Of a stretch of 13,740 nucleotides of DNA, positions 1-13,740 are shown in pieces. Source of the DNA: a virus (Duplodnaviria > Heunggongvirae > Uroviricota > Caudoviricetes); IMG/VR virus record IMGVR_UViG_2695420746_000009, positions 1 through 13,740 of that record. One strand, 5' to 3'. The notes beneath the pieces are model-generated. The model was given only the letters and a program-made list of their open reading frames with translations, made no database searches and was not told the origin of the DNA. A program made the translations under genes and the position numbers. The first letter of the stretch is position 1; every line of letters starts with the position of its first letter.

Positions 1-84
1 ATCACGGTAATGATTAACAGCCCATGACAGGCAGACGATGATGCAGATAATCAGAGCGGAGATAATCGCGGTTAACCTGCTCAT
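1..84 (-). CDS. Rz: i-spanin Rz, N-terminal 28 codons only (gene runs off the window start)
   Basis: Reverse strand from 84 reads [28 protein letters not shown], near-identical to my recollection of the lambda Rz N-terminus (single TM anchor). Its ATG overlaps the endolysin stop (ATGA). Confidence 0.85.
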
Positions 85-581
85 TGCTGCCCCCACAAAC
101 AGACTTCACGCTCAATATCACGACGGGTCATCAGCCCTTTCCATTGCTTACCGCCAGCGTATGTCCAGCGACGTAGCTGGTCACATGCGCCTTTGATATA
201 GCCCTGGTTTATTTTGCGAAGAAGCGTCGATGTTCTGAAATTGCCAGCACCCACGTTGTAGACGAACGAGTAAAGAGCGCCGCGCGTTGTTTCCGGTATA
301 TCGACTTTGATGTACGGGTTAATTTGTCTGGCGACCGTGGCAAGGTCTTTATTCAGGAGGGCTTTGCATTCTGCTTCGGTATACGTTTTACCTAGCATGA
401 TGTCTTTTCCAGTGTGTCCGTAACATACAGTCCATACGCCAACAATATCTTTGTATGGTATGTAACTGACACCTTCCAGACCATCGTTACCACTTGGGCC
501 AGTGATGAGCATAGACGCTATGGCAATAGCCCCGCCACCAATAGCAGCTGTGACAGCTTTGCGTAATGATGACTGCATCAT
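81..581 (-). CDS. SAR endolysin (phage lysozyme, GH24, P21 R-like)
   Basis: 166 aa. N-terminal Gly/Ala-rich weakly hydrophobic segment [20 protein letters not shown] typical of a signal-anchor-release domain, followed by a T4-lysozyme-like catalytic region ([24 protein letters not shown]). Near-identical to my recollection of P21 R. Tandem ATG ATG start overlaps the holin stop. Confidence 0.9.
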
Positions 582-850
582 ATTTCCTTCGGTGCTCTCT
601 TCCCCAGCTCTCCAATAACCATCGCTGTAGCAGAAAGATTATTGGTATTAGTTTTATCCAATATGTCCTGCAATATCTTCGTGCGCTTCATCTGCTCGCG
701 TTTATTGAGCCGGTATGTAAGCACACCGAGGATAATGCTGAACGCGACACCGATAATGAAGCCCCAATCCTGCAATGACAGGCTGGCAAAGAACGCAGCA
801 AGACCAGCGCTACCATAAGATGCACTGCTGTATCGTTCATCCATCTTCAT
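578..850 (-). CDS. class II holin / pinholin with dual-start motif (holin and antiholin)
   Basis: 90 aa with two hydrophobic segments ([11 protein letters not shown] and [18 protein letters not shown]) and a charged C-terminus. Starts Met-Lys-Met (ATG AAG ATG), the classic dual-start arrangement. SD GAGGT lies 7 nt upstream. Sits immediately upstream of, and overlapping, the SAR endolysin. Confidence 0.75.
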
Positions 851-945
851 ATCTCTTACCTCGCAATAGTTGCTGAGGTTTCGGCTTGGAAACTATATGG
901 CGAAAATAACCCCTACCAAAAACGGCAGGGGAATATATTCTCCAG

Positions 946-2022
946 TTACTCAAATAACTTTTTCACTTCATCAACTGTCTGAAGATAACGTTCGCTCTCA
1001 ATCTCAATACCTATTGCCTGACGTCCTAACTTCAGCGCAGCTTTAATAGTTGAGCCTGATCCCATAAAGAAATCGGCAACGATATCTCCGGGGCGTGAAC
1101 TACTCTTTATAATATGTTCCATCATCGCTGCAGGTTTTTCACATGGGTGCTTGCCAGGATAATATTGCACAGGAGGAAACTCCCATACATCGGTATAAGG
1201 TACATCAGCAGTAACATGAAATGGACGGCGTAAATTTTCATACTGAGTCTTCAAATCATCATACTGCTTCTTTACTTCCTCATAATGCAATTTCAGATCG
1301 CTATAACGCTTTTCATGTTCTGAATAATCAACATTAAAAGGATATGGACACGGGACACCGAGTGAATCTGCCTTCCTGCGAAATAATTCGCATAGTTTAT
1401 TAAAATCAATTAATGATGGAAGCCGCCACTGCGAATAAGAAAACCAGTGTGAACACATCTGCTTTCCTGTCGCTGAATTAATGTCTGCGGCTGATATATC
1501 TAACTGACGGCGAGCCAGCGAAAAAGCATCAATTAGTGGAGAAAATATATTTTTTCTTAAATCTGCACATTTTGAAGCATAACCTGACTGACCTTTAGCA
1601 TAACCTGACGCGCCGTAATGCTCTGCAAATAATATTCTTTCAGTAGCAGGAAAATAAGCCCTTAAACTTTCTTTATGACAACCGCGCCACATACCACTGG
1701 GTTTAGCCCAAATGATATGGTTCAGAACATTGAAACGGTCGCGAGTTAATAATTCAATTTTTGACGCAAGGCGAGAGCCGGTAAACATATACAGGCTGCC
1801 ATTAGGGGCCAATATCCGCCAAAATTCTGCCAAAAATTCGTCAATCCACCCCAAAAAGTCAGCATCGCTATCCCACTGGTTATCCCATGCGTTAGCCTTT
1901 ACGCCGAAGTATGGTGGGTCTGTTGCAATCAAATTGACCGAGTTATCAGGGATGGTTTTGATAAATTGCAGAGAATCTGCGCAAACGAGTTGTGCGCCAT
2001 GAATATTAGTGGTTTTGAACAT
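946..2022 (-). CDS. DNA N6-adenine methyltransferase, beta class (orphan, phage late-region moron)
   Basis: Motif IV DPPY near the N-terminus (LIATDPPYFG) and motif I FxGxG near the C-terminus (DFFMGSGST), i.e. the beta-class order. A coiled-coil-like insert (KRYSDLKLHYEEVKKQYDDLKTQYENLRR) lies in the presumed target-recognition region. Start chosen at the ATG giving MFKTTNIHG; the ORF track extends to 2067. Neither start has a clear SD. Confidence 0.85.
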   Translation of the reverse strand: MFKTTNIHGAQLVCADSLQFIKTIPDNSVNLIATDPPYFGVKANAWDNQWDSDADFLGWIDEFLAEFWRILAPNGSLYMFTGSRLASKIELLTRDRFNVLNHIIWAKPSGMWRGCHKESLRAYFPATERILFAEHYGASGYAKGQSGYASKCADLRKNIFSPLIDAFSLARRQLDISAADINSATGKQMCSHWFSYSQWRLPSLIDFNKLCELFRRKADSLGVPCPYPFNVDYSEHEKRYSDLKLHYEEVKKQYDDLKTQYENLRRPFHVTADVPYTDVWEFPPVQYYPGKHPCEKPAAMMEHIIKSSSRPGDIVADFFMGSGSTIKAALKLGRQAIGIEIESERYLQTVDEVKKLFE

Positions 2023-2157
2023 AGCTATTATTTTTTTGCCTGGGTAAGCTAACCCAGCGATGCGCATCGCGGGTGGGCTTTAGGTTCAGCCTATAGCTCT
2101 GGCATGGGTTGACCGCAGGACAAGCTGCAACTTGTCCTGCGCCCACTTTTCAGGCAC

Positions 2158-2179
2158 AAAAAAACCGCCATAAAGGCGG
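2158..2179 (-). terminator. Intrinsic terminator for leftward transcription (GC hairpin plus U7)
   Basis: Plus strand CCGCC-ATAAA-GGCGG (2165-2179) preceded by a run of 7 A (2158-2164). On the minus strand this is a 5-bp all-GC stem followed by UUUUUUU. Confidence 0.6.
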
Positions 2180-2218
2180 CTTGTTGGCTATTGGGTACAA
2201 AAAACCCAACTTAACAAA

Positions 2219-2247
2219 ACAATAACTAAAAACCGTCATTTTGCCAA
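2219..2247 (-). promoter_or_regulatory. Candidate sigma70 promoter firing leftward into the terminator and late genes (pR'-like by position)
   Basis: Minus-strand TTGGCA (rc of 2242-2247), 17-nt spacer, TATTGT (rc of 2219-2224). The terminator lies about 30-55 nt downstream. No other promoter-like sequence is visible before the methyltransferase start. Confidence 0.35.
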
Positions 2248-2264
2248 GCTTTTTCGTTTTTGTG

Positions 2265-2286
2265 CTGTGCGACCATGGTCGCACAG
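2265..2286. repeat. Perfect 22-bp palindrome CTGTGCGACCATGGTCGCACAG; copy 1 of dispersed TGCGACC-NN-GGTCGCA motif (candidate centromere-like site)
   Basis: Read directly. Intergenic, about 20 bp upstream of the candidate late promoter -35. Same core as the copies at 6573-6590 and 9017-9034. Confidence 0.5.
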
Positions 2287-2289
2287 TTT

Positions 2290-2517
2290 TTAGAAAGTTG
2301 CCTGCTTATATTCATCGGTCAAAGAATATCGACCAGACCCACTACGCTTTGCAACCCCAAAACAGATCATCTGTTCGATGATAAATTCAACGGCAGCCTG
2401 ACTCAAAAAACAGGCTTCGCTTAACTCTTTCAAGGAAATGCGTGGATATCCACGCATAACACATTCCACACTCAGGGCCGCTTCGGTCATATTTCCACGA
2501 ATTTCATTAATATTCAT
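2290..2517 (-). CDS. Hypothetical small protein with probable winged-helix/HTH segment
   Basis: 75 aa. SD GAGAGG 4-5 nt upstream of the ATG. Helix-turn-helix-like stretch ISLKELSEACFLSQAAVEFIIEQM followed by a Gly-rich wing-like segment. Second gene of a two-gene minus-strand operon, ending at the terminator. Confidence 0.55.
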   Translation of the reverse strand: MNINEIRGNMTEAALSVECVMRGYPRISLKELSEACFLSQAAVEFIIEQMICFGVAKRSGSGRYSLTDEYKQATF

Positions 2518-2530
2518 AACGCCTCTCTAA

Positions 2531-2752
2531 TCAATCTTGAAACTGGAAATCAACATCAGCCATAAAGCGGTTCAACTCAGCCAGTTTTGGCCCCATAGTC
2601 CCAATTAAGCGGCCAGCCAGTCGGTCTGTCAGGTTGGTACTGTTGAAACCATATTCCTTTTCGAAACGTTCAACCTTCTGCCACAACTCATACAATTCGT
2701 TAGCTATCTCCGCAACGTCGCCGCGCATTTTTTCGTTACCTTGATAATTCAT
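2531..2752 (-). CDS. Hypothetical small acidic protein
   Basis: 73 aa from the internal ATG (MNYQGNEK...), which has SD GAGGA 4 nt upstream. The ORF-track start at 2770 has no usable SD. Gap of 13 nt to the downstream HTH gene. Confidence 0.5.
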   Translation of the reverse strand: MNYQGNEKMRGDVAEIANELYELWQKVERFEKEYGFNSTNLTDRLAGRLIGTMGPKLAELNRFMADVDFQFQD

Positions 2753-2839
2753 AATATCCTCGAAATTCATATAGTTAGTGGGTTATCCCCCTCAACAACA
2801 CGAACTGTAACTCTGCCAAAAGAACACATCCAGTGTTAT

Positions 2840-2857
2840 TTTCACTTTTTAGTGAAA
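2840..2857. promoter_or_regulatory. Inverted repeat TTTCAC-N6-GTGAAA in the divergent promoter region (candidate operator for TA autoregulation)
   Basis: Read directly, about 60 bp upstream of the toxin start, between two divergent transcription units. Confidence 0.4.
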
Positions 2858-2915
2858 TTTTATATTTGCTTTGTTTTCTCGTTTTGGTGTATTTTGCGCG
2901 TTAGGAGGCTATAAT

Positions 2916-3227
2916 ATGTTTAACGTGATAACCCACCCTGCAGCACTGGATGAACTGCTTGAACTACCAGACGATCTGCGAGGTCGCATGACCAGGCTAA
3001 TTGAACGACTGGAGAAAGAGGGAAACAAACTTAAGATGCCCCATAGCCGTGTAATAGGCGGAGGACTCTTTGAACTAAGAGTAGGGGATAAAAACATCGC
3101 AAGAACGCTATACGCCTACGCGACTGGTAACGAAATTTATCTATTGCATGCATTTGTAAAAAAGACACAGAAAACACCAGTAAAGGCTATAGAAATCGCC
3201 AGAACTCGCCTGAAGGAGATGAACTGA
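2916..3227 (+). CDS. Type II toxin, RelE/ParE superfamily, HigB/Gp49-like (addiction module killer protein)
   Basis: 103 aa from the ATG with SD AGGAGG 7 nt upstream. Family-typical motifs LFELR, LLHAF and KKTQKTP. Stop overlaps the start of the downstream HTH gene by 1 nt. The ORF-track start at 2871 is over-extended. Confidence 0.8.
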   Translation: MFNVITHPAALDELLELPDDLRGRMTRLIERLEKEGNKLKMPHSRVIGGGLFELRVGDKNIARTLYAYATGNEIYLLHAFVKKTQKTPVKAIEIARTRLKEMN

Positions 3228-3514
3228 TGAAAGCAAAAGGCATCCCGTTTAACGAAGTAAAGGAAAAACTACTCAACACTCCAGAAGCTATCAAAGGATA
3301 TGAAGAGGCCGATAAAGAACTGGAGATGGTCGAAATGTTATACGAAATGAGGGAAAGAGCAGGTTTAACGAAGTCAGCTCTGGCAGAACGAATGGGATTG
3401 CGCCCGTCCGCCATCAGCCGCCTGGAAAGCAATCCTTTAGGGGCAAGCATGAAAACTTTATCAAAATATGCCCAAGCATGTGGCGCAACAATTAATATTA
3501 ATGCCGTCTATTGA
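3227..3514 (+). CDS. HTH (XRE-family) antitoxin, HigA-like antidote protein
   Basis: 95 aa. Classic HTH LTKSALAERMGLRPSAISRLE. Translationally coupled to the upstream toxin in toxin-first (HigBA-type) order. Confidence 0.8.
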   Translation: MKAKGIPFNEVKEKLLNTPEAIKGYEEADKELEMVEMLYEMRERAGLTKSALAERMGLRPSAISRLESNPLGASMKTLSKYAQACGATININAVY

Positions 3515-3531
3515 TTAATCACTTTTCACTA

Positions 3532-3551
3532 CCCCGTCCAGAAGGGCGGGG
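3532..3551. terminator. Hairpin between convergent genes (possible bidirectional terminator)
   Basis: CCCCGTCC-AGAA-GGGCGGGG, an 8-bp stem with one G-U pair. Lies between the antitoxin stop (3514) and the stop of the convergent ORF (3558). Flanking U-tracts are poor. Confidence 0.4.
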
Positions 3552-3557
3552 TGTGTA

Positions 3558-3776
3558 TCAATGATGTAAACACTCCACAGCAATCGCTTGTTGGCAATTC
3601 TGAGCAATCTCCCGCGACATACTAACAAGCCGTGAAATCTCGCCAAGATGCAAGCTAGCTTCGGGAGAAGCCAGAGCAACGCTAACCAGATCCAAAACGG
3701 CGTCGATGTCTTTTAGGTTTGATCCGAGTTCTTCAAGAGTTGATACAGATGCTTCAGTCATTGAATCTAATACCAT
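3558..3776 (-). CDS. Hypothetical small acidic protein; candidate LexA-regulated gene
   Basis: 72 aa, rich in D/E. No recognisable SD in front of the ATG. A consensus-like LexA box lies 23 nt upstream. Coding status uncertain. Confidence 0.4.
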   Translation of the reverse strand: MVLDSMTEASVSTLEELGSNLKDIDAVLDLVSVALASPEASLHLGEISRLVSMSREIAQNCQQAIAVECLHH

Positions 3777-3798
3777 TTAATTAAAAAAGGTTATTTGA

Positions 3799-3818
3799 TA
3801 CTGTATAAAATTACAGGG
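3799..3818. promoter_or_regulatory. Candidate LexA (SOS) box
   Basis: TACTGTATAAAATTACAGGG: CTGT-N8-ACAG with an AT-rich spacer, 16 of 20 matches to TACTGTATATATATACAGTA. Overlaps a possible -10 (TACAGT on the minus strand) for the 3558-3776 ORF. It is the only CTGT-N8-ACAG found in the intergenic regions inspected. Confidence 0.55.
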
Positions 3819-4017
3819 TAAAACTCAAATTTTATAGCCAACTTTCAATGGATTAACAGGGTTAATAGCTTTGTAGTCCGATACTTATGTTCTCTTCCTA
3901 CGCCTCACTCAACCACCTACAGAAGCCCATCATCACCATAAGAAAAACTCTTTTCGCTTCGTTTTCTCATCATTTCAAAAACTATGCCTTTTTGTTTATT
4001 TATCATTCCGTGACCAG

Positions 4018-4344
4018 TCACACTTTGAGCACAAGTTTCAGCCTCGTAGTTGTAAGGTGACATGAGCCTTCACCATCAAAAATACATTCTGAAACAGGCA
4101 TTTTCTGACCACATCGCGGGCAAGTAGTAGATAGCTGCTTCTGCAGCTCCTTATAGTTTTTCCTGATCAGCAGACCGATGACTTCATTCTCTGAATATGG
4201 AACTCGTCCCGGTCTACGCAATACACAAATTTCCCCCAACATACGTAGCTCGTCAGGTTCCAGAATCCAGTCCCGTCTTGATGTGCCTTCCTTCTTCAAC
4301 CGTTCCCTGCGTCTCCTTTGCCGTTCTGCAGCTGTCAGCGCCAT
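4018..4344 (-). CDS. Hypothetical protein with arginine-rich N-terminus and C-terminal Cys cluster
   Basis: 108 aa. SD AGGAGG 4 nt upstream. N-terminus AERQRRRRERLKK; Cys cluster CPRCG...C...C. Last gene of the minus-strand operon. Confidence 0.6.
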   Translation of the reverse strand: MALTAAERQRRRRERLKKEGTSRRDWILEPDELRMLGEICVLRRPGRVPYSENEVIGLLIRKNYKELQKQLSTTCPRCGQKMPVSECIFDGEGSCHLTTTRLKLVLKV

Positions 4345-4359
4345 AAATCCTCCTGAAAA

Positions 4360-5034
4360 TTACTTAACCCAATTAACTACACCGCCAGCGGCCACAACCG
4401 CTTTTTCACAGTCACGCTCATATCTCAAAGGTTGAAATACACCATCAATAAAATATTTATCTCCACCACATGCTGCAGGAAGTGAAACAGAAAACTGAAT
4501 ATGACCATCCGGAGTTACCGGAGAGTTGCCAGCCTCATACGCTACCCTTATCCAGTGCATAAGCATTTCTGTACTTACACATCCACAATCAACATCAATT
4601 TTGTCATGCTGCTGTTCCAGCCATTGCTCAAAAGTTAACTTGTAAGTTTGGCTTATAGGTTTGGCTTCCAGTTCTGCTATGTGATTTTTGGCTGATTCCA
4701 ACTCAATCGACAATTTTTCCAACTGCTCTTTATGCTTCTTGTATTCCTGATATGCGTGCCAAGACTGACCTTTGCGCACACTATCCGTGATATCAGTAAT
4801 CTGTTCTGGTGTTAGCGTGGTCAGTGGCTGTGCTGGGAAAATCAGCACTTTCCCGGAATCCCAATCAAAACCAGCGTGAATTGACTGAACCTCAACTGAA
4901 GGTGTTGAACCAATGCTGCCAGGCGAATGAACAACGATCGTTACATCCATATCGCGACGATCGCTGTGGTTGTTGGACAAAATACGATTCAACAAAATAC
5001 GATTCACCAACTCAGAAAATTTAGAAAATTTCAT
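4360..5034 (-). CDS. Hypothetical protein with central coiled-coil
   Basis: 224 aa. ATG overlaps the upstream gene stop (ATGA). Coiled-coil-like region KKHKEQLEKLSIELESAKNHIAELEAK. Contains an in-frame 15-bp tandem duplication near the 5' end. Confidence 0.65.
   Translation of the reverse strand: MKFSKFSELVNRILLNRILSNNHSDRRDMDVTIVVHSPGSIGSTPSVEVQSIHAGFDWDSGKVLIFPAQPLTTLTPEQITDITDSVRKGQSWHAYQEYKKHKEQLEKLSIELESAKNHIAELEAKPISQTYKLTFEQWLEQQHDKIDVDCGCVSTEMLMHWIRVAYEAGNSPVTPDGHIQFSVSLPAACGGDKYFIDGVFQPLRYERDCEKAVVAAGGVVNWVK
4977..5006. repeat. Perfect tandem duplication of 15 bp (ACAAAATACGATTCA x2), in frame inside CDS 4360-5034
   Basis: Read directly. Encodes the repeated NRIL(L/S) unit in the N-terminus. 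Confidence 0.8.
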
Positions 5035-5321
5035 GCTGATTCACCTTTCTCTGCTCTCTCCTGTCGGAACATCACTATCATCAGGTCGCCTTTTGTCGCT
5101 ATCTTGGCTGTTGTGCCTGGCTCAATGCGGCTAAGTTCAAATGCGTCATAGAACGCCTCCAACGCTTTCTGGCGTTTTTCCTGTTTGCGGCGCTTTCCCC
5201 ACTGCTTTAGAAAAACAGAGGCCGCCCACTTCCCCGCACTGAACATGATGTAAAACCAACCGAGAAGTGCCAGACCGGTATTTAGGGCCGTATCGATCGT
5301 TATCGTGGTGTCGATATTCAC
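5031..5321 (-). CDS. Small membrane protein (one predicted TM segment), GTG start
   Basis: 96 aa from GTG at 5321, which is preceded by SD AGGAGG at 7-nt spacing and overlaps the upstream stop (TAGTG). TM-like segment GLALLGWFYIMFSAGKWAASVFL followed by a basic stretch. The ORF-track start at 5399 would overlap the upstream gene by 79 nt. Confidence 0.55.
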   Translation of the reverse strand: MNIDTTITIDTALNTGLALLGWFYIMFSAGKWAASVFLKQWGKRRKQEKRQKALEAFYDAFELSRIEPGTTAKIATKGDLMIVMFRQERAEKGESA

Positions 5322-5740
5322 TACGCCACCTCCTGAAAATTTCCCTGATAAAACGCCAACACACGCTGCATAACTTCGCTCTTCCGACAATCGTGACAAA
5401 TCATGTTCAAGCGCCTGTCGTAACGACGTATTTCTCCATCAGGTAATGACCAGATAAGGTCAGGATCAACAACTACCGATTTCTTCGGCTTTACTCTTGA
5501 TAGCTTTTTGCGGGCGTTTTGCCAGTCCTTGCGCGCTTGTGCAGACAGAAATATCCCGGAGCCAGAGATATACAAATCACCACTGGTGGCAAGCTCTCTG
5601 GATAAACGATTAACAGCACATCGGCTAATACTAATTTCATCTGCCAGTTGCCTAACCGTTCCTCGCCCATTCAGGCGCACGAGTTCCACAATTTGTTTCT
5701 TCAGTTCTTCACGCTGTTCTGGTGTAAAAACTTTTGCCAT
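5321..5740 (-). CDS. HTH-containing DNA-binding protein, function unknown
   Basis: 139 aa. SD GGAGA 6 nt upstream. ATG overlaps the exonuclease stop (TAATG). HTH-like stretch VRQLADEISISRCAVNRLSREL. Confidence 0.7.
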   Translation of the reverse strand: MAKVFTPEQREELKKQIVELVRLNGRGTVRQLADEISISRCAVNRLSRELATSGDLYISGSGIFLSAQARKDWQNARKKLSRVKPKKSVVVDPDLIWSLPDGEIRRYDRRLNMICHDCRKSEVMQRVLAFYQGNFQEVA

Positions 5741-6339
5741 TACGATTCTCCTTTCCCTTTTATGAGACGGGAGAAAATTGCGGATACATACTTAGCCTGA
5801 TGAATAGCATCAGCTAGGGCATGGTGTCGTTCGCCATCAAATGGCATATCTTTTTTAGAATTGAAACCAATAAACTGACCAAGATTAACGATTGTTCGAA
5901 CATCCTGATCATTAAAATATTCCCACGGACAGGCTAAGCCAACGCGCTCATAAGCACCGCGTAAAATTACATTGTCGAATGTTGCTCCATTTCCCCATAC
6001 TTTCAATTTTTTTAAATTACATGCATGGCAAGTAATAAAGTGTGATAATTCAAAAAGTGCATCCTTAATATCAAGGGCATCATTAGTACAAATTGCGGCT
6101 CTGGCTTCCTTGCTCTGTTTCAACCACCATAAAATGGTATCACCATCGGCGACACCACCATTCAACATCGAGCTTCTGAGATTCACTGGCACATAAAAAG
6201 TAGGACCTAATTCCTCACTTTCTGGAGAAAAAAACACTGCCCCGATAGAAACAATTGGAGCACATGTGTTAGTACCCATTGTTTCAAGGTCAATCATTAC
6301 ATCAGACCGTTTCCTGTCGTAAATAATCTGATTAGTCAC
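5740..6339 (-). CDS. DEDDh-family 3'-5' exonuclease (DnaQ-like fold)
   Basis: 199 aa. Exo I motif MIDLETMG (D-x-E), Exo II GNGATFDNVIL, Exo III HHALADAIHQAKY (H-x4-D with Tyr). GTG start with SD GAGGAG 8 nt upstream. Confidence 0.75.
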   Translation of the reverse strand: MTNQIIYDRKRSDVMIDLETMGTNTCAPIVSIGAVFFSPESEELGPTFYVPVNLRSSMLNGGVADGDTILWWLKQSKEARAAICTNDALDIKDALFELSHFITCHACNLKKLKVWGNGATFDNVILRGAYERVGLACPWEYFNDQDVRTIVNLGQFIGFNSKKDMPFDGERHHALADAIHQAKYVSAIFSRLIKGKGES

Positions 6340-6362
6340 GAATAATTCTCCTCAACGTTTAT

Positions 6363-6566
6363 CTATACCCAAATTTTCTGTTGATATGTTCTGGATGGTT
6401 TTGGCGTTCTTTCTGATTCAGGTAAATGAACATAAACGCAATATCCATCACCTAAAAAATCAGAACGAACAACCAGAACTTTCTTACCACGCCGCCGATA
6501 AGTATCTGAAAGACGCTCTGCTTCATCATGCGTCATCGGCCCCTGCTTAAATGGCGTTATTTTCAT
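6363..6566 (-). CDS. Hypothetical small basic protein
   Basis: 67 aa from the ATG (MKITPFKQ...). The 18-bp palindrome lies 6 nt upstream of the start; no clear SD. The ORF-track start at 6590 is a GTG inside the palindrome. Confidence 0.5.
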   Translation of the reverse strand: MKITPFKQGPMTHDEAERLSDTYRRRGKKVLVVRSDFLGDGYCVYVHLPESERTPKPSRTYQQKIWV

Positions 6567-6867
6567 TTTCTTGTGCGACCGCGGTCGCACCCTCGCTGAT
6601 TTCCAAGTAACGCTTAATCCAAAGATTTTCTATATGCTTATTACCTGGCTGATTTGATAAATACCAATCGGCAATTACAGACTGCTTATTACTATCTGGT
6701 CGTGTCCTGTAACCACAAGTTGGACACCAGATAACATATTCATTTCTTACCCCCGAATACCTTAATTCTGGCTTCGACGGTTTCCTGAACATAACTTGTT
6801 TACAAAGGCAGAATGGCACTTCCTGCCCGATGGCGTTTGATGATTTCACTGCGCTTCTCCGCCGCAT
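6547..6867 (-). CDS. Hypothetical protein with Cys pairs (CxC ... CPxCG), possible zinc ribbon
   Basis: 106 aa as given in the ORF track; start uncertain (no SD at either candidate ATG, and it overlaps the upstream gene by 68 nt if full length). Cys pattern CLC ... CPTCG. Confidence 0.4.
   Translation of the reverse strand: MRRRSAVKSSNAIGQEVPFCLCKQVMFRKPSKPELRYSGVRNEYVIWCPTCGYRTRPDSNKQSVIADWYLSNQPGNKHIENLWIKRYLEISEGATAVAQENENNAI
6573..6590. repeat. Perfect 18-bp palindrome GTGCGACCGCGGTCGCAC; copy 2 of TGCGACC-NN-GGTCGCA motif
   Basis: Read directly. Lies within the 3' end of ORF 6547-6867 (encoding ATAVAQ) and immediately upstream of the start of the 6363-6566 gene. Confidence 0.5.
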
Positions 6868-7510
6868 TTAATAATGCGGTTCGATTTAAGCTCAGACATC
6901 GCGACTTAATTAAAAGCCAGCGTTCTTTATAATCTTGTCTCCAGCTATCAATAGATATATTCAGTAGAAAACTCAGATGCCTGTCCTGTTCTCTCTCATC
7001 AACTGCCTCAGCACACGTAAGTTCTGATTTAACCTGCTGTGCCGCGTAATAAATCAATTTCCGCATGGCTTTTTTCGTGGAGGCCTTCATTTTTTTAAAG
7101 CCGCCCCCAGAATGAGCAACCAGAAAATCAAGCCATAACCACTGACAAACAATCACATCATTGTTGTAGTCAGGCTTGCATCCGTAGCAATAATAAAGCC
7201 AGGCTGATTCCTCGTTATTCAACTGACCAATAGCCCTGCGCCAGCTGGCGCTCTGAAAATCAATATCAGTGAGCAACATTGATGATTGTTTAAATGTTTT
7301 CCCTTGGTGGAATCTAACCGACTCAGCGGGAACGGACACTTCGTATGAGTTATCATCCCCCACACTGATTGACCGGACTGGTTTATTGTTAAACCGTCCT
7401 GATCTACCGAGACGCATCTGCTCAAGCTGGACCTCCAGAATGCCACGCTGGCGATAATGAACATCAGCCAATGCCGTAGAGACGCAGCTGCGTATATACT
7501 CAAGCTCCAC
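6800..7510 (-). CDS. Hypothetical protein; positional candidate for a late-gene antiterminator (Q-like), unverified
   Basis: 236 aa. GTG start with SD AGGAGA at 9-nt spacing, overlapping the cro-like stop by 11 nt. First gene after the cro-like gene. I cannot confirm Q-family membership by eye. Confidence 0.55.
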   Translation of the reverse strand: MELEYIRSCVSTALADVHYRQRGILEVQLEQMRLGRSGRFNNKPVRSISVGDDNSYEVSVPAESVRFHQGKTFKQSSMLLTDIDFQSASWRRAIGQLNNEESAWLYYCYGCKPDYNNDVIVCQWLWLDFLVAHSGGGFKKMKASTKKAMRKLIYYAAQQVKSELTCAEAVDEREQDRHLSFLLNISIDSWRQDYKERWLLIKSRCLSLNRTALLNAAEKRSEIIKRHRAGSAILPL

Positions 7511-7721
7511 GCTTACGACTCTCCTTAATCGACTGCTTTACCCGCCGAGTTGTAAAGTCACTCTTCAGCTTGTAAGCAGTACGAACTTCAATATCGCTTT
7601 GCCGCAATGAAGGAATCTCTCCAGCGGTTAACCATTGGTAAACAGCTCCGGGTGTTACACCTACCCCTGCCGCTGCTTTTTCAACACTGCCAAAGTGGCG
7701 AATAAGTTCTTCTGGTTTCAT
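7500..7721 (-). CDS. Cro-like HTH regulator
   Basis: 73 aa from the ATG giving MKPEELIRHF. HTH VGVTPGAVYQWLTAGEIP resembles the lambda Cro GVYQSAINKAI region. Divergent from the CI-like gene across an operator-bearing intergenic region. TATAAT lies 7 nt upstream of the ATG, so the mRNA may be leaderless. Confidence 0.7.
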   Translation of the reverse strand: MKPEELIRHFGSVEKAAAGVGVTPGAVYQWLTAGEIPSLRQSDIEVRTAYKLKSDFTTRRVKQSIKESRKRGA

Positions 7722-7749
7722 GTTGTTATTATAAACAATAAATAACAAT

Positions 7750-7789
7750 TAAAGCCAGCTATAATAAATAAATTTTATAGCCAGCTATA
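7750..7789. promoter_or_regulatory. Two operator-like 14-bp sites (TAAAGCCAGCTATA and TATAGCCAGCTATA) between the divergent cro-like and cI-like genes
   Basis: The 12-mer AGCCAGCTATAA occurs twice, 26 bp apart. The second site is a near-perfect dyad (TATAGC-CA-GCTATA). The location is the expected OR-like switch region. Confidence 0.5.
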
Positions 7790-7812
7790 AGAAGATCATT
7801 TATGATTACAGT

Positions 7813-8409
7813 ATGAAAACACGAGGCGAACGACTGAAAGCACGCCGTTTAGAGATGAAGCTGACGTTGCGAGAAGTTGCTGAGGCTGTCGATATCTCTA
7901 TAGCAGGCGTCCAAAACTTAGAACGTGGCGACGTAATGCCGTCACTGGAGATAGGTATTGCCCTGGCTAAGTGCTTACGCAAGCCAGTGCATTGGGTGCT
8001 ATATGGGACAGAATATGACCCTGATCGCATTCCTGTTATTGGCACAACTGAAAGTGGGCCTGATGAAGAGTGGAAGCCGGGACAGGTTCCAAATACTGAG
8101 CGATTCCTGCCATTCATCAGCCAGCGCAATACTGTGTATGCGTTAACTATCAGCAATCTTACGCAGGGAAACTATCAGCCAGGCGATTTTCTCCTGGTCG
8201 ATTCTGCGCTGGAACTGGTCCCCGGCGAGGATGTTCTGGTTCGTGATACTGCAGGAAATATCACTATCCAGCGCCTAGCCCGTTTTGATGATGAAAATTA
8301 CTATCTGGATGGAACAAACTCACAACGCGCCATCTTCAGGAAAAGCGATCTTGAATTTGTTCACCAAATAGTCGGAACGATCAAATCATTCATGGTTGAG
8401 GGTAGATGA
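7813..8409 (+). CDS. CI-like prophage repressor (N-terminal XRE HTH, C-terminal CI/LexA-like domain)
   Basis: 198 aa. HTH LTLREVAEAVDISIAGVQNLERG. C-terminal region resembles lambda CI around PGDF (QPGDFLLVDS ... VGTIKS). I could not locate a canonical G-D-S-M catalytic Ser context by eye, so autocleavage competence is uncertain. Confidence 0.8.
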   Translation: MKTRGERLKARRLEMKLTLREVAEAVDISIAGVQNLERGDVMPSLEIGIALAKCLRKPVHWVLYGTEYDPDRIPVIGTTESGPDEEWKPGQVPNTERFLPFISQRNTVYALTISNLTQGNYQPGDFLLVDSALELVPGEDVLVRDTAGNITIQRLARFDDENYYLDGTNSQRAIFRKSDLEFVHQIVGTIKSFMVEGR

Positions 8410-8510
8410 CTTAATACGGGGTTTATTGTTTGCTGTAAATCTGGTTTAATGCAGGGCATATGTTCTGTGGGTTGACTCAGGTTACAGCAGCAGAAAAAAG
8501 ACGAAAAAAA

Positions 8511-8539
8511 ACCCGAGTCGGCAAACTCGGGTCCTTTTC
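8511..8539. terminator. Bidirectional intrinsic terminator between the cI-like and repA-like genes
   Basis: ACCCGAGT-CGGCAA-ACTCGGGT, an 8-bp stem. The plus-strand U-tract is weak (CCUUUUC); the minus-strand U-tract is strong (UUUUUUUUCGUCUUUUUUC). Confidence 0.5.
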
Positions 8540-8654
8540 AGGAAGCAGCCACAGTAACGCGACGGATTCCGTCAATTCAAGATGCGTTTATTGTGGCTGC
8601 TCCTGCGGATTTTTTCAACCCGAAAAAACATAATTCGCATGGAATGGCTAAAAA

Positions 8655-11600
8655 ATGACATTAAACGATTTCTATGCGGATCGCTTTGGCAGCGATCCGT
8701 TCTCGCTAATTGAAGCAGCACGGGATGAACTAACCGAGCTGGCACAGATGGCTGGTATCAACTGGCCTGCCTGTTCCGACAACATCCAACTCAACCCTCG
8801 CGGGGGAGTTGAGCGTTACTCTTCATACAATAAAACATCTCCAGAAGCTCTCGAAAAGAGCCTGAAAGGACGCGTAGAAATTTACTCCCGGCTGGAACAC
8901 AGCAAAGGGATTGATTACCCGTTCATTAACTTCGTCCATAAAGGCAGCGATGCTGGCTCATGGAGCGGTTTCTCCTTCCTGTTTTCTGAATATCGCCGTG
9001 AGCAACAACGGAATAATGCGACCGTGGTCGCACAACCGGAAGAAGAACGGGAAAGAATAGAACGTCAGGCCGAAGCACGTCGTCGCCGTGAAGAACAAAA
9101 ACGAATTAATGACCTGAAAAACAACCAAATGGACCATGAACGTTTGCTGGGATGGCTGGCATTCCACAGCGCGTGGGAACATGCTCCGGCTGAAGACGGC
9201 TCATGGCCATATGCGATTAAAAAAGGTATTCGTGACGTTTTTAGTTCATGTGATGTGCGTCGCGTGACCAGTCACGACAGTGCGAAATGGAGCCGGGGGC
9301 CAACCACATATATGGCTATCCCTCTGGCTCACCTGGACGGTCGTTACGATGGTCGTATTGTGGGTTGGCAGCGAATCGACAAACAAGGTGGGAAATACCA
9401 GACCAGCGCAGTAACCAGCGGCGATTTCGTCGGTGCCTGCTTTGTTATCGGTGAGCTGAAAGGGGCGCAAAACATCGCTGTTACAGAAGGTTTTGCTACT
9501 GGTGCATCCATCTGGCTTGCCACGAAAAAAGATAAACGCTTTGACGCTGTGGTTGTCGCTGTATCCGCTAACAACATGGTTCATGTTGTGGAACAACTGG
9601 TAAACATGTACCCAGCGGCAAAAATCACCTGCGCACTGGATAATGACCGGAAATCTGCCACAGAAGGAAAAGGGAATACCGGCCTGCGGACTGGCTATGA
9701 AATCTTATCGAAATTCAACGATGTCCGCTGCGTCTATCCAACTTTTGAAGACGATCCGCAAATGGAGTGCAGTGACTTCAACGACCTGCACAAACTACGT
9801 GGACTTCGTGAAACCGCACGTCAACTATTTACAACAGCAAACCGCCTGAAAACCGGTACTGATTTGCTATCTCTGACGCTCAACCGCCTGAAGACAATTA
9901 AGCGGGATAACCGTCGTACTTTTGCCAAAGAGCTGCTGAGAGCGGTGGATATTGGCATGCTAACCTGTCCAGTTCCTAACAGTCCGTCAGATTTATTTAA
10001 CATGTTCTGCATCGTTCTGCGTGAAATGGGACTGGAAAATATCTATCGCGCTACGGTAAAAGACCACATTGCCCGTCGCCTGAATAAAAAGTGCCGTATT
10101 GCCCAGGCTCCGCGCTCTTTCAGCGAACGCATAACTGATCCCAATAAACGCCCTCAACATATCACCTATAAGCGTTTTGAAACTTCGGTAATGACCGATG
10201 ATGTCCTGAAGTACGTGCAATCACTACAAGGGATAGTCATCGTCCGTGCTGGTATGGGTTCCGGCAAATCTACAGGATTGTTACGACCATTAATGCATAG
10301 CTCAGAACGTGGTATCTCTGTTGCTCACCGTGTCTCCCTTATTGGTGGCCTGTGGGAAATGATGACAGAAGGAAAAGGTGTAAAAGCCGATATCCTGCAC
10401 TATCAGGACCCTGGCTATCAGGAAATGGCTCCATACGCCAGTAAACTGACCATCTGCATAAACTCGATTGTCAAAAACTGCTGGCAACCGTTGATGCGCC
10501 AGCACGACTATTTTGGCTTTGACGAGGCCACACAAGGGCTACGTGCCGTTCTTTCCGGTCGGGCTATGGAAAACCCGGTGGCTGTATTCAATACGCTAAT
10601 TGACGCGCTGGCCAGAACGGAACAACACCCAATCATGGTGGATGCTGATGCGAACGATCTGCTGGTTGACCTAGCTGAACTGGCTATGAAACGCCGTGAA
10701 GAACTAGGTTTACCGGCATGGCTGCAGATCCACGTAATTGAATTACCTGTTGATGTTCGCAACCGCGAAACAGGTGAGCCAATCCGGGTTTTTTATACAG
10801 AAAAAGATCGCATCATGACCGAGGTGGTGAAAGCTGTATCGGATGGCGAAAAAATCATGTTGGCCACCGACAGCTCCACCTTTGCAGAAGATGTGACAGC
10901 CACCCTGAGAATGCATTTTCCTGGTAAGAAATTTCTGTGTGTAAACCAGAAAAACAAACCAGAGCCAGAAGTTGAAGCATTTACCAATCAACCGAAAAAG
11001 ATGGTCAAAAAATACGACGGCCTGATTTATAGCCCGTCTATTTCATCCGGCGTGTCGATTGAGCAAAAACATTTTGACCGTCATTTCGGCATGTTCTGTG
11101 GTGAAGTTGTACCCAGCGACGCAGTGCAAATGCTACGCCGCGACCGTACAGCAAAAGAATTTATTATCGGCTTTGATAAAGCTCGTGCAAAACGTGAAAC
11201 TGACCCGCAAAAAATAGAACGAGCATTCGCCCAGGCATTGCTTGCTACCGCAGGTATGAACGGTGAACTGACGGATGTTGTTTTCGATGGCGACCGTATA
11301 TCAATGGGGGTGGCCAATACCGACTTTACCAGGATGAAAATTAAAGCAGCCGCAATTGAAGCGACTGCGCGTAACGACTACGCCAGCAACATGATCTGCA
11401 TCATGCACAGCGACGGTTATAAGGTATCGCCGCTGGCCACCGATTATGCTGCGAATGATATCGGTAAAGATCTGCGTAAAGAAGCGCGGGATATTGTGTG
11501 GGAACAGACACTGGATCTGCACCTCAATACAGAAACTCCACAAGAATCAGAGCGTGAAGAACTGCTAAAAAAACGCGCGCTGACGCTTGAAGAACAGGCA

Positions 11601-12698
11601 AAACTTGTCCGCTGGGATATTGAAAACGAACTGAAACTACCGGTTGAAGAAGGCACGCTGAAATTCTATTTCGATGGTGCTCGAGACAAAGTTCGCCGCT
11701 ATGAAACAATGCTTTTAGATGAGGTAACAGCTCGTCGTTACGACCGGGAAGAAGCAGCCATCAATTTTACCTACGCATACCGTCAGGCGGGACAGTGGCA
11801 ATATTTTGTAGTGACCGCGATGACTCGCGAGCAGGCTGATGATGTCTTTAAAACTAAATTCCCTGGAATAATCGATCACAAGGTAAAAGCTACTCCTACT
11901 GTTGAAGTCGGGGCGCGCGGTTTCTATGCGCTTAAATCAGCAACTCTCCGGCAGTACTTTATCGACTGCGGTATCAACCCTGAGACTATGACCGGCGAGG
12001 CGACTCAGGAGCGTCTCAAATTTGCTCGAGATAACCTCATGACAGCCGAACGCCGTGACCTGTTGAATAACGTTCTGCACATTGGTGGTTTTATGACGCC
12101 AAAAGGGAAGCCTAAAGTGCCGGAAGCGTTGTTTAAAAACATTTGCGACTCTCTTGGCCTTAAAACAGGTAAACGTCGCGGCAGAGACGGCGATAAGCGT
12201 CCAACCTTGCGTTTTGTTGAGCCTGAATCAGCGGCATTTATGCTGGATATTCTTGCTCAGCGTCAGAAAGATGGCCTAACCCTGAAAACGCGTAAAGCCG
12301 AGAAGACCGCCATCGAAATGGATCGCGATTTGGATCTCAATATATATATGGATGATAAAACGCGATCCACAAACGAGCAGGTTCAAAACGCCCCTCATTC
12401 AGTAATTTCTGAGGCTTTGGCTGTGTTGCCAGTGGTTGTACCTGAGTCCTGGGCGATGAGTGCGCTTTCCGGTGAGGAGCTGGCCACTATGTCATCATGG
12501 TCATCAGCCAGCATAGCTATGACGTTTGCATCTCTGTACCTCACAGAGTTCATGGATCACTTATCCAGCAATGAACTGCGGCGGTTACGTGAATACATTA
12601 CCGGGAATAGCTGGATTTGCCCCTATATTTCCAGACATCTGTTATCACTTAACCCATTACAAGCCCGCTGCCGCAGATATTCCCGTGGCGAGCGATAA
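8655..12698 (+). CDS. Large multidomain replication initiator (primase-helicase, N15 RepA-like); 3' end disrupted by IS2
   Basis: 1347 codons as an ORF. Toprim-like motifs ([12 protein letters not shown] and CALDNDR) around aa 280-330, Walker A GMGSGKST around aa 535, Walker B-like FGFDEAT, then a roughly 700-aa C-terminal region. Native sequence ends at 12611 (1319 codons); codons 1320-1347 are read from the IS2 terminal inverted repeat. Weak SD. Confidence 0.8.
9017..9034. repeat. Palindrome TGCGACC-GT-GGTCGCA; copy 3 of the motif, inside the repA-like coding sequence
   Basis: Read directly. Encodes ATVVAQ in a charged linker ([21 protein letters not shown]), in the same codon phase as copy 2 (ATAVAQ). 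Confidence 0.5.
12320..12368. other. Candidate origin-like element inside the 3' part of the repA-like gene
   Basis: 8-bp inverted repeats GGATCGCG / CGCGATCC flank ATTTGGATCTCAATATATATATGGATGATAAAA, which includes an (AT)5 run and three GATC sites within 49 bp. Confidence 0.3.
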
Positions 12699-13528
12699 CC
12701 CAGCGCACTATGCGGATGCCATTCGTTATAATGCTCGAACGCCTCTGCAAGGTTCTTTGCTGCCGTTAACCCGTCTGGTTTGGGCATGATACTGATGTAG
12801 TCACGCTTTATCGTTTTCACGAAGCTCTCTGCTATTCCGTTACTCTCCGGACTCCGCACCGCCGTGTTCTTCGGTTCAAGTCCCAACATCCGGGCGAACT
12901 GGCGTGTTTCATTAGCCCGGTAGCATGAACCATTATCCGTCAGCCACTCCACTGGAGACGACGGAAGATCGTTGCCGAAGCGGCGTTCCACCGCTCCCAG
13001 CATGACGTCCTGTACTGTTTCACTGTTGAAGCCGCCGGTAGTCACCGCCCAGTGCAGTGCCTCACGATCACAGCAGTCCAGCGCGAACGTGACACGCAGT
13101 CTCTCTCCGTTATCACAGCAGAACTCGAACCCGTCAGAGCACCATCGCTGATTGCTTTCTTTCACGGCCACTCTGCCTGTATGTGCCCGTTTCGATGGCG
13201 GTACAGCAGGTTTTCGCTCAAGCAACAGCGCATTCTGGCGCATGATCCGGTAAACACGTTTGGCATTGATCGCAGGCATACCATCAAGTTCTGCCTGTCT
13301 GCGAAGCAGCGCCCATACCCGACGATAACCATACGTGGGCAGCTCTCCGATAACATGGTGTATACGGAGAAGCACATCCGTATCATCAGTGTGACGACTG
13401 CGGCGGCCATCCATCCAGTCATCGGTTCGTCTGAGAATGACGTGCAACTGCGCACGCGACACCCGGAGACAACGGCTGACTAAGCTTACTCCCCATCCCC
13501 GGGCAATAAGGGCGCGTGCGCTATCCAC
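12623..13528 (-). CDS. insD: IS2 transposase OrfB (InsD), normally expressed as an OrfAB fusion by -1 frameshift
   Basis: 301 aa beginning [23 protein letters not shown] and ending SDNRCLEI, matching IS2 InsD from memory. DDE-type integrase core. Confidence 0.9.
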
Positions 13529-13740
13529 TTTTTTGCCCGTCCATATTCAACGGCTTCTTTGAGGAGTTCATTTTCCATCGTTTTCTTGCCGAGCAGGCGC
13601 TGGAGTTCTTTAATCTGCTTCATGGCGGCAGCAAGTTCAGAGGCAGGAACAACCTGTTCTCCGGCGGCGACAGCAGTAAGACTTCCTTCCTGGTATTGCT
13701 TACGCCAGAGAAATAACTGGCTGGCTGCTACACCATGTTG
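13486..13740 (-). CDS. insC: IS2 OrfA (InsC), C-terminal part (5' end beyond the window)
   Basis: Reverse strand reads ...[20 protein letters not shown] ... [24 protein letters not shown], then a stop. Overlaps the insD start region, which contains the slippery AAAAAAG. Confidence 0.85.

Follow-up and report, generated by a model that had tools for sequence, protein, structure and literature searches.

What are the two small genes that lie beside the late region of IMG/VR virus record IMGVR_UViG_2695420746_000009 (Caudoviricetes; positions 1 to 13,740, the 13,740-nt stretch that we refer to as the window), and do they form an accessory system of their own? A sequence-only reading of the locus had described a gene for a 73-aa acidic protein followed 13 nt later by one for a 75-aa winged-helix protein, had recognised neither product, and had proposed either an anti-CRISPR/anti-CRISPR-associated (Acr-Aca) or a toxin-antitoxin (TA) arrangement, to be checked by profile and structure searches. 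Our analysis bore out the layout, with both genes on the minus strand, a gap of exactly 13 nt (2518-2530), a Shine-Dalgarno (SD) sequence at each gene (GAGGA and GAGAGG) and a location in an accessory region beside the late genes. The proteins proved recognisable. They are the counterparts of gp50 and gp51 of the linear plasmid-prophages N15 and phiKO2, and gp50 is a member of Pfam family PF27407 (YubE), which is found mostly in conjugative plasmids. We regard this identity and the anatomy of the pair as practically certain. Taking identity and function together, we propose at a probability of roughly 0.4 that the two genes are a cassette consisting of a YubE/gp50 effector and a gp51 partner.

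The window is the right arm, reversed, of a linear plasmid-prophage of the N15-like (Ravinvirus) type. An 851-bp stretch around the gene pair shared 96.4% DNA identity with Escherichia phages YDC107_1 and PhiR46_1, and YDC107_1 labels the two genes 'putative gp50' and 'putative gp51'. Counterparts occupied matching positions in N15 (NP_046946 and NP_046947) and phiKO2, and PY54 shared the locus without YubE. By sequence comparison, the pair is orthologous to N15/phiKO2 genes 50 and 51, and the genes are therefore already catalogued; their N15, phiKO2 and YDC107_1 records give no function. N15, phiKO2 and YDC107_1 resemble the window from the TA operon through gene 50, gene 51, a palindrome, the late promoter, a terminator and gene 52 to the lysis genes, differing in sequence divergence only, except that the window element adds an IS2 copy in the 3' end of repA. 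Against the N15 and phiKO2 orthologues, the proportions of synonymous (pS) and nonsynonymous (pN) differences were 0.65-1.0 and 0.10-0.18, respectively, with dN/dS ~0.07 where computable. Both are real genes, more than chance open reading frames (ORFs), and under strong purifying selection.

The reading frame of gene 50 is open up to 2770 (79 aa). We preferred the ATG at 2752 because the SD sequence GAGGA lies 4 nt upstream of it, because the family is uniformly 73 aa and begins MNY, and because the upstream ATG meets a stop in N15. gp50 matched phrog_4830 over its entire length (2e-39, residues 1-73 of 73), every gp50 homologue of 73-97% identity carried the precomputed Pfam label PF27407 'YubE', and a profile built from plasmid and phage YubE members scored window-type gp50 at E ~1e-34. 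The protein has the features of the family: ~73 residues, an MNY N-terminus, R10, Y34, L41, RLAG at 44-47 and a C-terminal F-x-D. An alignment of 21 members from phages, plasmids and integrative and conjugative elements (ICEs) had M1, N2, Y3, Y34 and F71 invariant, and R10, L41, R44, L45, G47 and D73 conserved in at least 90%. Exhaustive HMMER searching with gp50 returned 25 cluster representatives, all YubE-like and ~73 aa, and no connection to any characterised family. YubE is a compact family limited to enterobacterial mobile elements. gp50 is acidic (isoelectric point (pI) 4.7; 13 D+E vs 9 K+R), and its AlphaFold2 (AF2) model consisted of three helices arranged as a helical hairpin, with a mean predicted local distance difference test score (pLDDT) of 75. 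The model had no match under E = 0.4 in PDB or BFVD, and a PDB sequence-profile search with gp50 returned nothing.

gp51 was 100% identical to the YDC107_1 and PhiR46_1 proteins, 74.6% identical to that of N15 (tblastn against N15 gene 51, 5e-28) and 69% identical to that of phiKO2, and it combined a profile match to phrog_331, a large family, with a position 3' of gene 50. RefSeq names phiKO2 gp51 a 'winged helix-turn-helix domain-containing protein'. The AF2 model of the window protein (pLDDT 94.4) had the order H-H-H-beta-beta wing, and its top Foldseek matches in PDB were the winged-helix domains of MarR/IclR regulators and of the AspA centromere-binding protein (E ~4e-4); the predicted fold is a winged helix. 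Pfam gave sub-threshold generic winged helix-turn-helix matches only, NCBIfam and PADLOC gave nothing, and the PDB profile search had nothing under E = 0.04 and no Aca among its matches. We asked whether gp51 might be a shortened form of DUF1380/YubF, which comes after YubE in plasmids, and rejected this (hhalign probability 0.4%). The distribution of gp51 was narrow. We found it in 15 phage records, all of them telomere phages, in 215 'plasmids', nearly all of them non-mobilizable, 45-55 kb long and thus N15-like prophages, and in a few chromosomal P2-like prophages. The profile and structure searches thus gave families for both proteins and a fold for gp51, with no characterised function for gp50. 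Neither protein is a late regulator or structural component by homology; such homology was an outcome that the sequence-only reading had named as fatal to its own idea.

These results weigh on both of the arrangements originally proposed. The idea of a novel TA pair starts from two small, tightly linked and apparently co-transcribed genes on a plasmid-like replicon, a likeness to type II TA operons that does not extend to the proteins: neither has a toxin domain, fold or family, gp50 being a helical hairpin and gp51 a winged helix and nothing more, and both are acidic. Each gene also exists without the other, YubE in at least 5000 plasmids and gp51 in PY54, and such standalone occurrence, which a TA pair would not tolerate, argues against one. 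The real TA operon of the locus is next door and divergent (Table 1). Its toxin and antitoxin matched PF05973 (4e-29) and PF01381 (2e-12), and the N15 orthologue of the toxin is annotated as a RelE/ParE-family toxin. We consider a TA function for genes 50 and 51 scarcely credible.

A true Acr-Aca operon, in which gp50 would inhibit type I-E or I-F CRISPR-Cas and gp51 would be the Aca repressor, is very improbable. Escherichia and Klebsiella, the hosts concerned, carry type I CRISPR systems. The locus does look the part, having a small acidic protein followed by a small protein with a DNA-binding fold, in a short operon with a structured-looking 5' leader on a mobile element. However, gp51 had no homology to Aca1-14 and gp50 none to any Acr, with no such similarity in Pfam, NCBIfam, PADLOC or PDB; gp51 was never found behind other candidate acr genes, and it has no assignable operator. 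The distributions also run the wrong way. Almost every IncF plasmid has YubE, irrespective of the CRISPR system in its host, and the effector is broad where its regulator is narrow, the reverse of Aca logic. By tests of similarity and features, the pair belongs to no described Aca, Acr, TA or controller (C) protein family.

The main clue to gp50 comes from plasmids. With tblastn we found a full-length 73-aa match at 32-36% identity in at least 5000 plasmids, 3534 of them conjugative; the hosts are mostly conjugative plasmids of Escherichia, Klebsiella, Salmonella and Shigella. In the F plasmid (gene at 54850-55071), pAPEC-O2-R and one Klebsiella IncF plasmid, a 227-aa PF01555 DNA methylase lies directly before YubE, and the methylase stop adjoins or overlaps the YubE start. 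All three plasmids continue after YubE with DUF1380, a hypothetical gene and an anti-restriction gene, SSB comes next in F and pAPEC-O2-R, and PsiB then follows in F. The methylase matched PF01555 at 1e-39 and the window gene 52 methylase at 6e-13 (BLASTP). The plasmid proteins (YubE/YfcA) share with gp50 the 73-aa length, MNY, E..R, RLAG and the C-terminal F-x-D at 32-45% identity, as well as an adjoining PF01555 orphan methylase. They differ in following the methylase and preceding DUF1380, in having no winged-helix partner, and in lying in the leading region.

YubE of F and other conjugative plasmids corresponds to family 11 of Samuel et al. 2024 (Suppl. Table 1; PMC11541004), whose source names include 'YfcA' and 'Gp50'. 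With 3388 members, it is the 11th largest family significantly enriched in plasmid leading regions, the anti-defence islands (false discovery rate p = 0), at a median position of 20 genes from oriT, next to the methylase family at 21 and DUF1380 at 19 (PMC11541004). Leading-region genes are transiently expressed on plasmid entry (PMC11541004). The remaining contexts that we found are establishment or anti-defence neighbourhoods too: RES, a methylase fragment, YubE, Antirestrict and DUF1380 at one locus (L072), an ICE-like series of AcaB, DUF3158, SSB, PAPS-reductase, YubE and DUF3085, and YubE beside MazEF. IMG/VR searched with plasmid-type and P2-type YubE queries returned nothing, and no mention of yubE in its plasmid context turned up in the literature searched. 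From the leading-region association, an anti-defence role of gp50 is plausible.

Gene order around YubE in the F plasmid also recalls that of the phages. In F (NC_002483, 50955-55071), the methylase and YubE lie just past sopAB and an unannotated stretch where sopC is expected. N15-like phages have YubE-gp51, a sopC-like palindrome and a methylase of the homologous family in succession, and the same three kinds of element adjoin in F in another order.

The recurrence of the methylase raises the possibility that YubE/gp50 serves the PF01555 orphan methylase as an accessory subunit or a modulator, affecting its activity, specificity or use of single-stranded substrates, and not an inhibitor of host defence. 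The abutting or overlapping start and stop in plasmids suggest translational coupling, and a methylase of the same Pfam family adjoins the cassette in N15-like phages. Against this, YubE has no adjacent methylase in P2-like prophages, in ICE-like DNA or beside MazEF, the L072 methylase is a fragment of only 120 aa, and PY54 keeps the methylase without YubE. We judge a methylase cofactor to be distinctly improbable.

How tightly the two genes belong together was evaluated in a synteny census of 71 loci with 70 gp51-family instances. YubE lay directly upstream of gp51 in nearly all 70, except in 2 loci of the PY54 type and in one that a contig edge truncates, and no gene other than YubE was found in that position. 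Fifty-one N15-like loci had the order gp47, TA (gp48-gp49, opposite strand), YubE, gp51 and methylase, and in 5 N15-like loci HicAB replaced gp49/gp48. PY54-type phages had HicAB and gp51, no YubE, and the methylase. In Salmonella P2-like prophages, a HicBA/YubE/gp51 block follows tail gene D at the prophage end, and another P2-like element has gp49/gp48, YubE and gp51 followed by a ParA-like gene; downstream of the pair, both P2-like contexts were missing the methylase, the palindrome and p52. At deep divergence (L075, Logan SRR12008663 contig, 1-1257), YubE was 37% identical to gp50 and accompanied by a gp51-like protein of the same family despite low identity. YubE-gp51 therefore moves as a unit that is independent of the late module and invariably adjoins a TA module of one family or the other, and its presence in P2-like prophages without the late module marks it as a mobile cassette. 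The P2-like occurrences also disfavour, as the whole story, both the methylase cofactor and the late-control role that we weigh below.

The TA module beside the cassette is itself a swap hotspot, in which the Gp49/HigB-like and HTH_3 type alternates with HicAB in both N15-like and P2-like backgrounds (window 2916-3514, L049, L050, L054, L063, L067, L003, L007-L009 and L064). The exchange junction lies just upstream of a conserved AAGACTGGAT box. One of the Salmonella P2-like prophages with HicBA-YubE-gp51 (L009) contained a 52-aa remnant of a gp52-type methylase (1886-2041) and a lambda-type antiterminator fragment upstream of the tail genes, which points to an earlier recombination with a lambdoid or N15-like element. 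In Klebsiella phage Kpn74 (L004, OQ790078), the gene 50 and 51 homologues and many of their neighbours were split into short ORFs by apparent frameshifts, which look like low-accuracy assembly and not biology.

Constant company with a TA module (gp49/gp48 or HicAB, in N15-like and P2-like backgrounds) and the cargo position after gpD at the P2-like prophage end would also suit a 'moron' that is expressed from the prophage and benefits the lysogen, by superinfection exclusion or defence against phages and plasmids, as part of a defence/stability islet with the TA genes. This is quite unlikely. Neither protein had a PADLOC match, an enzymatic domain or a membrane domain, and the plasmid homologues lie in the leading region, where they would serve the incoming element and not the resident cell.

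The cassette seems to bring its own control region. About 95 nt upstream of gene 50 were kept in every context, including N15, phiKO2, divergent N15-like loci and P2-like prophages. In the window this block comprises AACACTGGATGTG, a -10-like TACAGT (2804-2809) with a weak -35, a GC stem-loop (2780-2791), TAAC and the SD sequence. The consensus reads AAGACTGGAT (AACACTGGAT in the window), GAGyTAnAnTT, the GC stem-loop, TAAC and the SD sequence; its -10-like TAnAnT, and with it the putative promoter P50, was deduced from conservation only. A strong, bidirectional-looking terminator (~345-380) comes after YubE in L075, where the gp51-like gene is a separate unit with a second full upstream block of ~110 nt (palindrome, -10-like box, GC hairpin and SD sequence). 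PY54 has the block immediately ahead of its gp51-like ORF59. This duplication and relocation point to a portable promoter/leader. The leader stem-loop lies ~12-14 nt after the -10-like box and was retained in most variants, with differing stems (GGG/CCC, GGGG/CCCC, CGGG/CCCG, GCGGG/CCCGC and AGGCGG/CCGCTT); it was absent in the L049 type, PY54 and L069, and single-sequence folding found it not significant (z from +0.1 to -2.1). No LexA box or P2 Ogr-type dyad was seen by eye upstream of gene 50.

Farther upstream, the TTTCACTAAAAAGTGAAA palindrome within the divergent TA promoter was a candidate operator for gp51. It was present with gp49/gp48-type TA modules and absent with HicAB, whatever the variant of the gp51 recognition helix, and we mostly rejected the candidate on this pattern. 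The palindrome is most likely the operator of the neighbouring TA antitoxin. A palindrome related to TTTCACTAAAAAGTGAAA precedes both YubE and the gp51-like gene in L075, leaving some doubt on that assignment.

Downstream of gene 51, the sequence-only reading had the pair end at a strong intrinsic terminator. The terminator is real, but it does not close the operon: it lies 108 nt past the gene 51 stop, ~30-35 nt downstream of the p52 start region, inside a late-promoter module. A promoter, a close terminator, a late operon and Q-encoding phages all occur here, as in lambdoid late modules. The arrangement resembles lambda PR'-qut-tR' and N15 p52 in having a promoter with a strong intrinsic terminator within tens of nt, ahead of a methylase-lysis operon, and a Q gene (PF06323) in the same genome. 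It differs from lambda in that Q is ~4.5 kb upstream and not adjacent, and in the SopB-type palindrome before the promoter. The terminator core, AACCGCC..GGCGGTTTTTTTGTGCCT, was almost invariant in all five phages aligned. Flanks of the second hairpin were conserved, with one stem of N15 type and another of phiKO2/PY54 type. The module as a whole (palindrome, promoter, TTTTTCTAAGTTGG box, terminator and second hairpin) was conserved in N15, phiKO2, a divergent Salmonella-type element, PY54 and L075. The phiKO2 annotation calls the homologous sites 'putative plasmid partitioning site', 'putative late promoter' and 'terminator', and that of N15 gives -35/-10 signals and a stem-loop. Judged from these alignments, the terminator is best seen as a tR'-like element of the Q-controlled late module that would also stop read-through from genes 50-51. 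The late module accounts for the terminator and not for the gene pair.

The SopB-type palindrome (GTGCGACC-NN-GGTCGCAC) occurred in three copies in the window, where none was expected: after gene 51 (2267-2284), downstream of Q (6573-6590) and inside repA (9016-9033). The first of these positions was conserved in N15, phiKO2, L006, PY54 and L075, with TTGGGACCAYGGTCCCAA in the divergent L006, PY54 and L075. We take the palindrome/promoter stretch to be the N15 late promoter p52, with SopB site IR3 before it and terminators that Q reads through. Q antitermination at N15 p52 was reportedly described by Ravin, Rech and Lane in 2008.

In all N15-like elements, gene 51 is directly followed by the palindrome, late promoter, terminator and methylase; gp51 might, with or without gp50, regulate a late-control/partition node by acting on the SopB-site palindrome, p52 or the terminators, and so tune expression of the late operon and orphan methylase in the manner of a controller protein before a methylase. 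PY54 has lost YubE yet keeps gp51 and the late module, and the association of YubE with a PF01555 methylase recurs in plasmids. Such a role is unlikely. The pair occurs in P2-like prophages without the palindrome, a p52-like promoter or the methylase, N15 late expression is reported to be explained by Q and SopB/IR sites without invoking gp51, and gp51 had no similarity to C proteins of the Xre type. We rejected gp51 as a C protein: its winged helix is not Xre-type, a promoter and a terminator separate it from the methylase, and it occurs where there is no methylase.

The reading that we favour, a YubE/gp50 effector with a gp51 partner, can be set out as follows. The cassette would be self-contained, with its own promoter/leader block, between a swappable TA module and the SopB-site/late-promoter/orphan-methylase module. 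YubE/gp50 would be an effector that binds protein and aids the establishment of an incoming mobile element, since it is small, acidic and helical, has no enzymatic domain, and occurs in first-transferred plasmid regions and phage cargo regions; a role in establishment is suggested by its neighbours, which are orphan methylases, anti-restriction genes, SSB and TA modules. Most likely it would interfere with host defence or with DNA surveillance by the host. Its phage-specific partner, the winged-helix protein gp51, would either control the cassette at the upstream block, as DNA or RNA, or modulate gp50 directly, and in plasmids zygotic expression from the leading region would supply the timing instead. 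On its own, the anti-defence/establishment function remains tentative, at somewhat less than an even chance. More doubtful still is an extended version, in which YubE is an unrecognised anti-defence/establishment effector of phage-plasmids, P2-like prophages, ICEs and most F-like resistance plasmids, acting through protein-protein interaction and possibly together with PF01555 methylases against restriction, and gp51 represents a new winged-helix regulator family at the promoter block or RNA leader that gives phages plasmid-like transient control.

Several observations weigh against the favoured reading. Neither gp50 nor gp51 had homology to Acr, Ard, Aca, defence or anti-defence proteins in PDB, BFVD, PADLOC, Pfam or NCBIfam, and family 11 had no anti-CRISPR or anti-restriction match by sequence or structure (PMC11541004). 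Residence in leading regions is guilt by association, and most of the at least 5000 plasmids share IncF/IncI backbones, making them non-independent instances. DNA binding by gp51 is not assured, because the protein is mildly acidic (pI 5.3) and its conserved 'recognition' helix 3 (AVEFIIEQM) has no basic residue; the conserved wing arginines R58 and R63 are the only residues that look DNA-directed. A simple sigma-70 scan upstream of gene 50 found no promoter at threshold, and no inverted repeat co-varied with gp51 in the loci compared. That PY54 keeps gp51 without YubE indicates that gp51 has some function of its own.

Table 1 Features of the gene 50-51 locus and its surroundings in the window.
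Feature	Position	Strand	Basis or note
Gene 52 orthologue: orphan N6/N4 DNA methyltransferase; opens the late operon	946-2067	minus	PF01555 at 5e-47
Second hairpin, between late promoter and methylase gene	2114-2141	minus	14-nt inverted repeat, 93% complementary
Predicted intrinsic terminator	2155-2182	minus	8-bp stem (2162-2182), 5 GC pairs, then T7
Predicted late promoter (N15 p52 equivalent), TTGGCA-17-TATTGT	2219-2247	minus	Promoter scan and alignment
SopB-type centromere palindrome GTGCGACCATGGTCGCAC, perfect 18 bp (N15 IR3 equivalent)	2267-2284		Right after gene 51 stop
Gene 51 orthologue (gene B): 75-aa predicted winged-helix protein	2290-2517	minus	phrog_331 at 3e-32; SD GAGAGG
Gene 50 orthologue (gene A): 73-aa acidic, predicted all-helical YubE-family protein	2531-2752	minus	ORF, SD, phrog_4830, PF27407
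Conserved upstream block: putative promoter P50 and ~50-nt leader	2753-2835	minus	Conservation
Predicted divergent TA promoter, TTTTCA-16-TATATT	2839-2866	plus	
Palindrome TTTCACTAAAAAGTGAAA	2842-2859		Between -35 and -10 of divergent TA promoter
Divergent TA operon: Gp49/HigB-like toxin (2916-3227), HTH_3 antitoxin (3227-3514)	2916-3514	plus	
Q antiterminator gene	6800-7510	minus	PF06323, 1e-82
IS2 transposase	12623-13528	minus	rve/HTH_21

The rest of the window is arranged as an N15-like right arm. On the minus strand, Cro is followed by Q, a 3'-5' exonuclease-like gene, several small genes and gp46/gp47-like genes up to the TA interval, and beyond the plus-strand TA operon come gene 50, gene 51, the orphan methylase, a holin and a lysozyme. 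The plus strand carries a cB-like repressor and the RepA primase. An Rfam scan of the whole window matched no family. Next to the TA operon, at 3558-3776 (minus strand), lies a gene for a very acidic 72-aa protein (pI 4.4; phrog_6301 and, weakly, the anti-repressor phrog_10889) that resembles the PY54 gene annotated antA (anti-repressor), which suggests that the secondary immunity (immA-like) region stops just before the TA module. A 106-aa ORF just 3' of Q (6547-6867, minus strand) matched the Lar restriction-alleviation family PF14354 weakly and below threshold (E = 3.5e-4; 21.2 bits vs a cutoff of 28.6), and one of the SopB-type palindromes is at its 3' end. The IS2 copy begins at ~12611 and reaches the window end (12611-13740), with 99.4-99.8% identity to IS2 of Shigella phage SfX and Stx phages. 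It is inserted at the extreme 3' end of repA, whose frame reads on into the element to give 1347 aa, compared with 3984 bp (about 1327 codons) annotated in YDC107_1.

Genes 50 and 51 were themselves already catalogued; the analysis gives an explicit link between phage-plasmids and one of the largest unannotated leading-region families. YubE is among the most abundant leading-region families without an assigned function, and it is carried by F and by thousands of resistance and virulence plasmids. Telomere phages and P2-like prophages carry it too, joined in one small cassette to a dedicated winged-helix protein and a conserved putative promoter. A cassette of ~0.55 kb in a temperate phage is a tractable genetic handle on YubE, with plaque and lysogeny read-outs. 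Should the functional reading be wrong, the analysis still indicates that the pair is neither a TA module, nor a known Acr-Aca locus, nor a part of the late regulatory machinery. If YubE is indeed an anti-defence or establishment factor, the finding would bear on how antimicrobial resistance plasmids and phage-plasmids pass the defences of their recipients.

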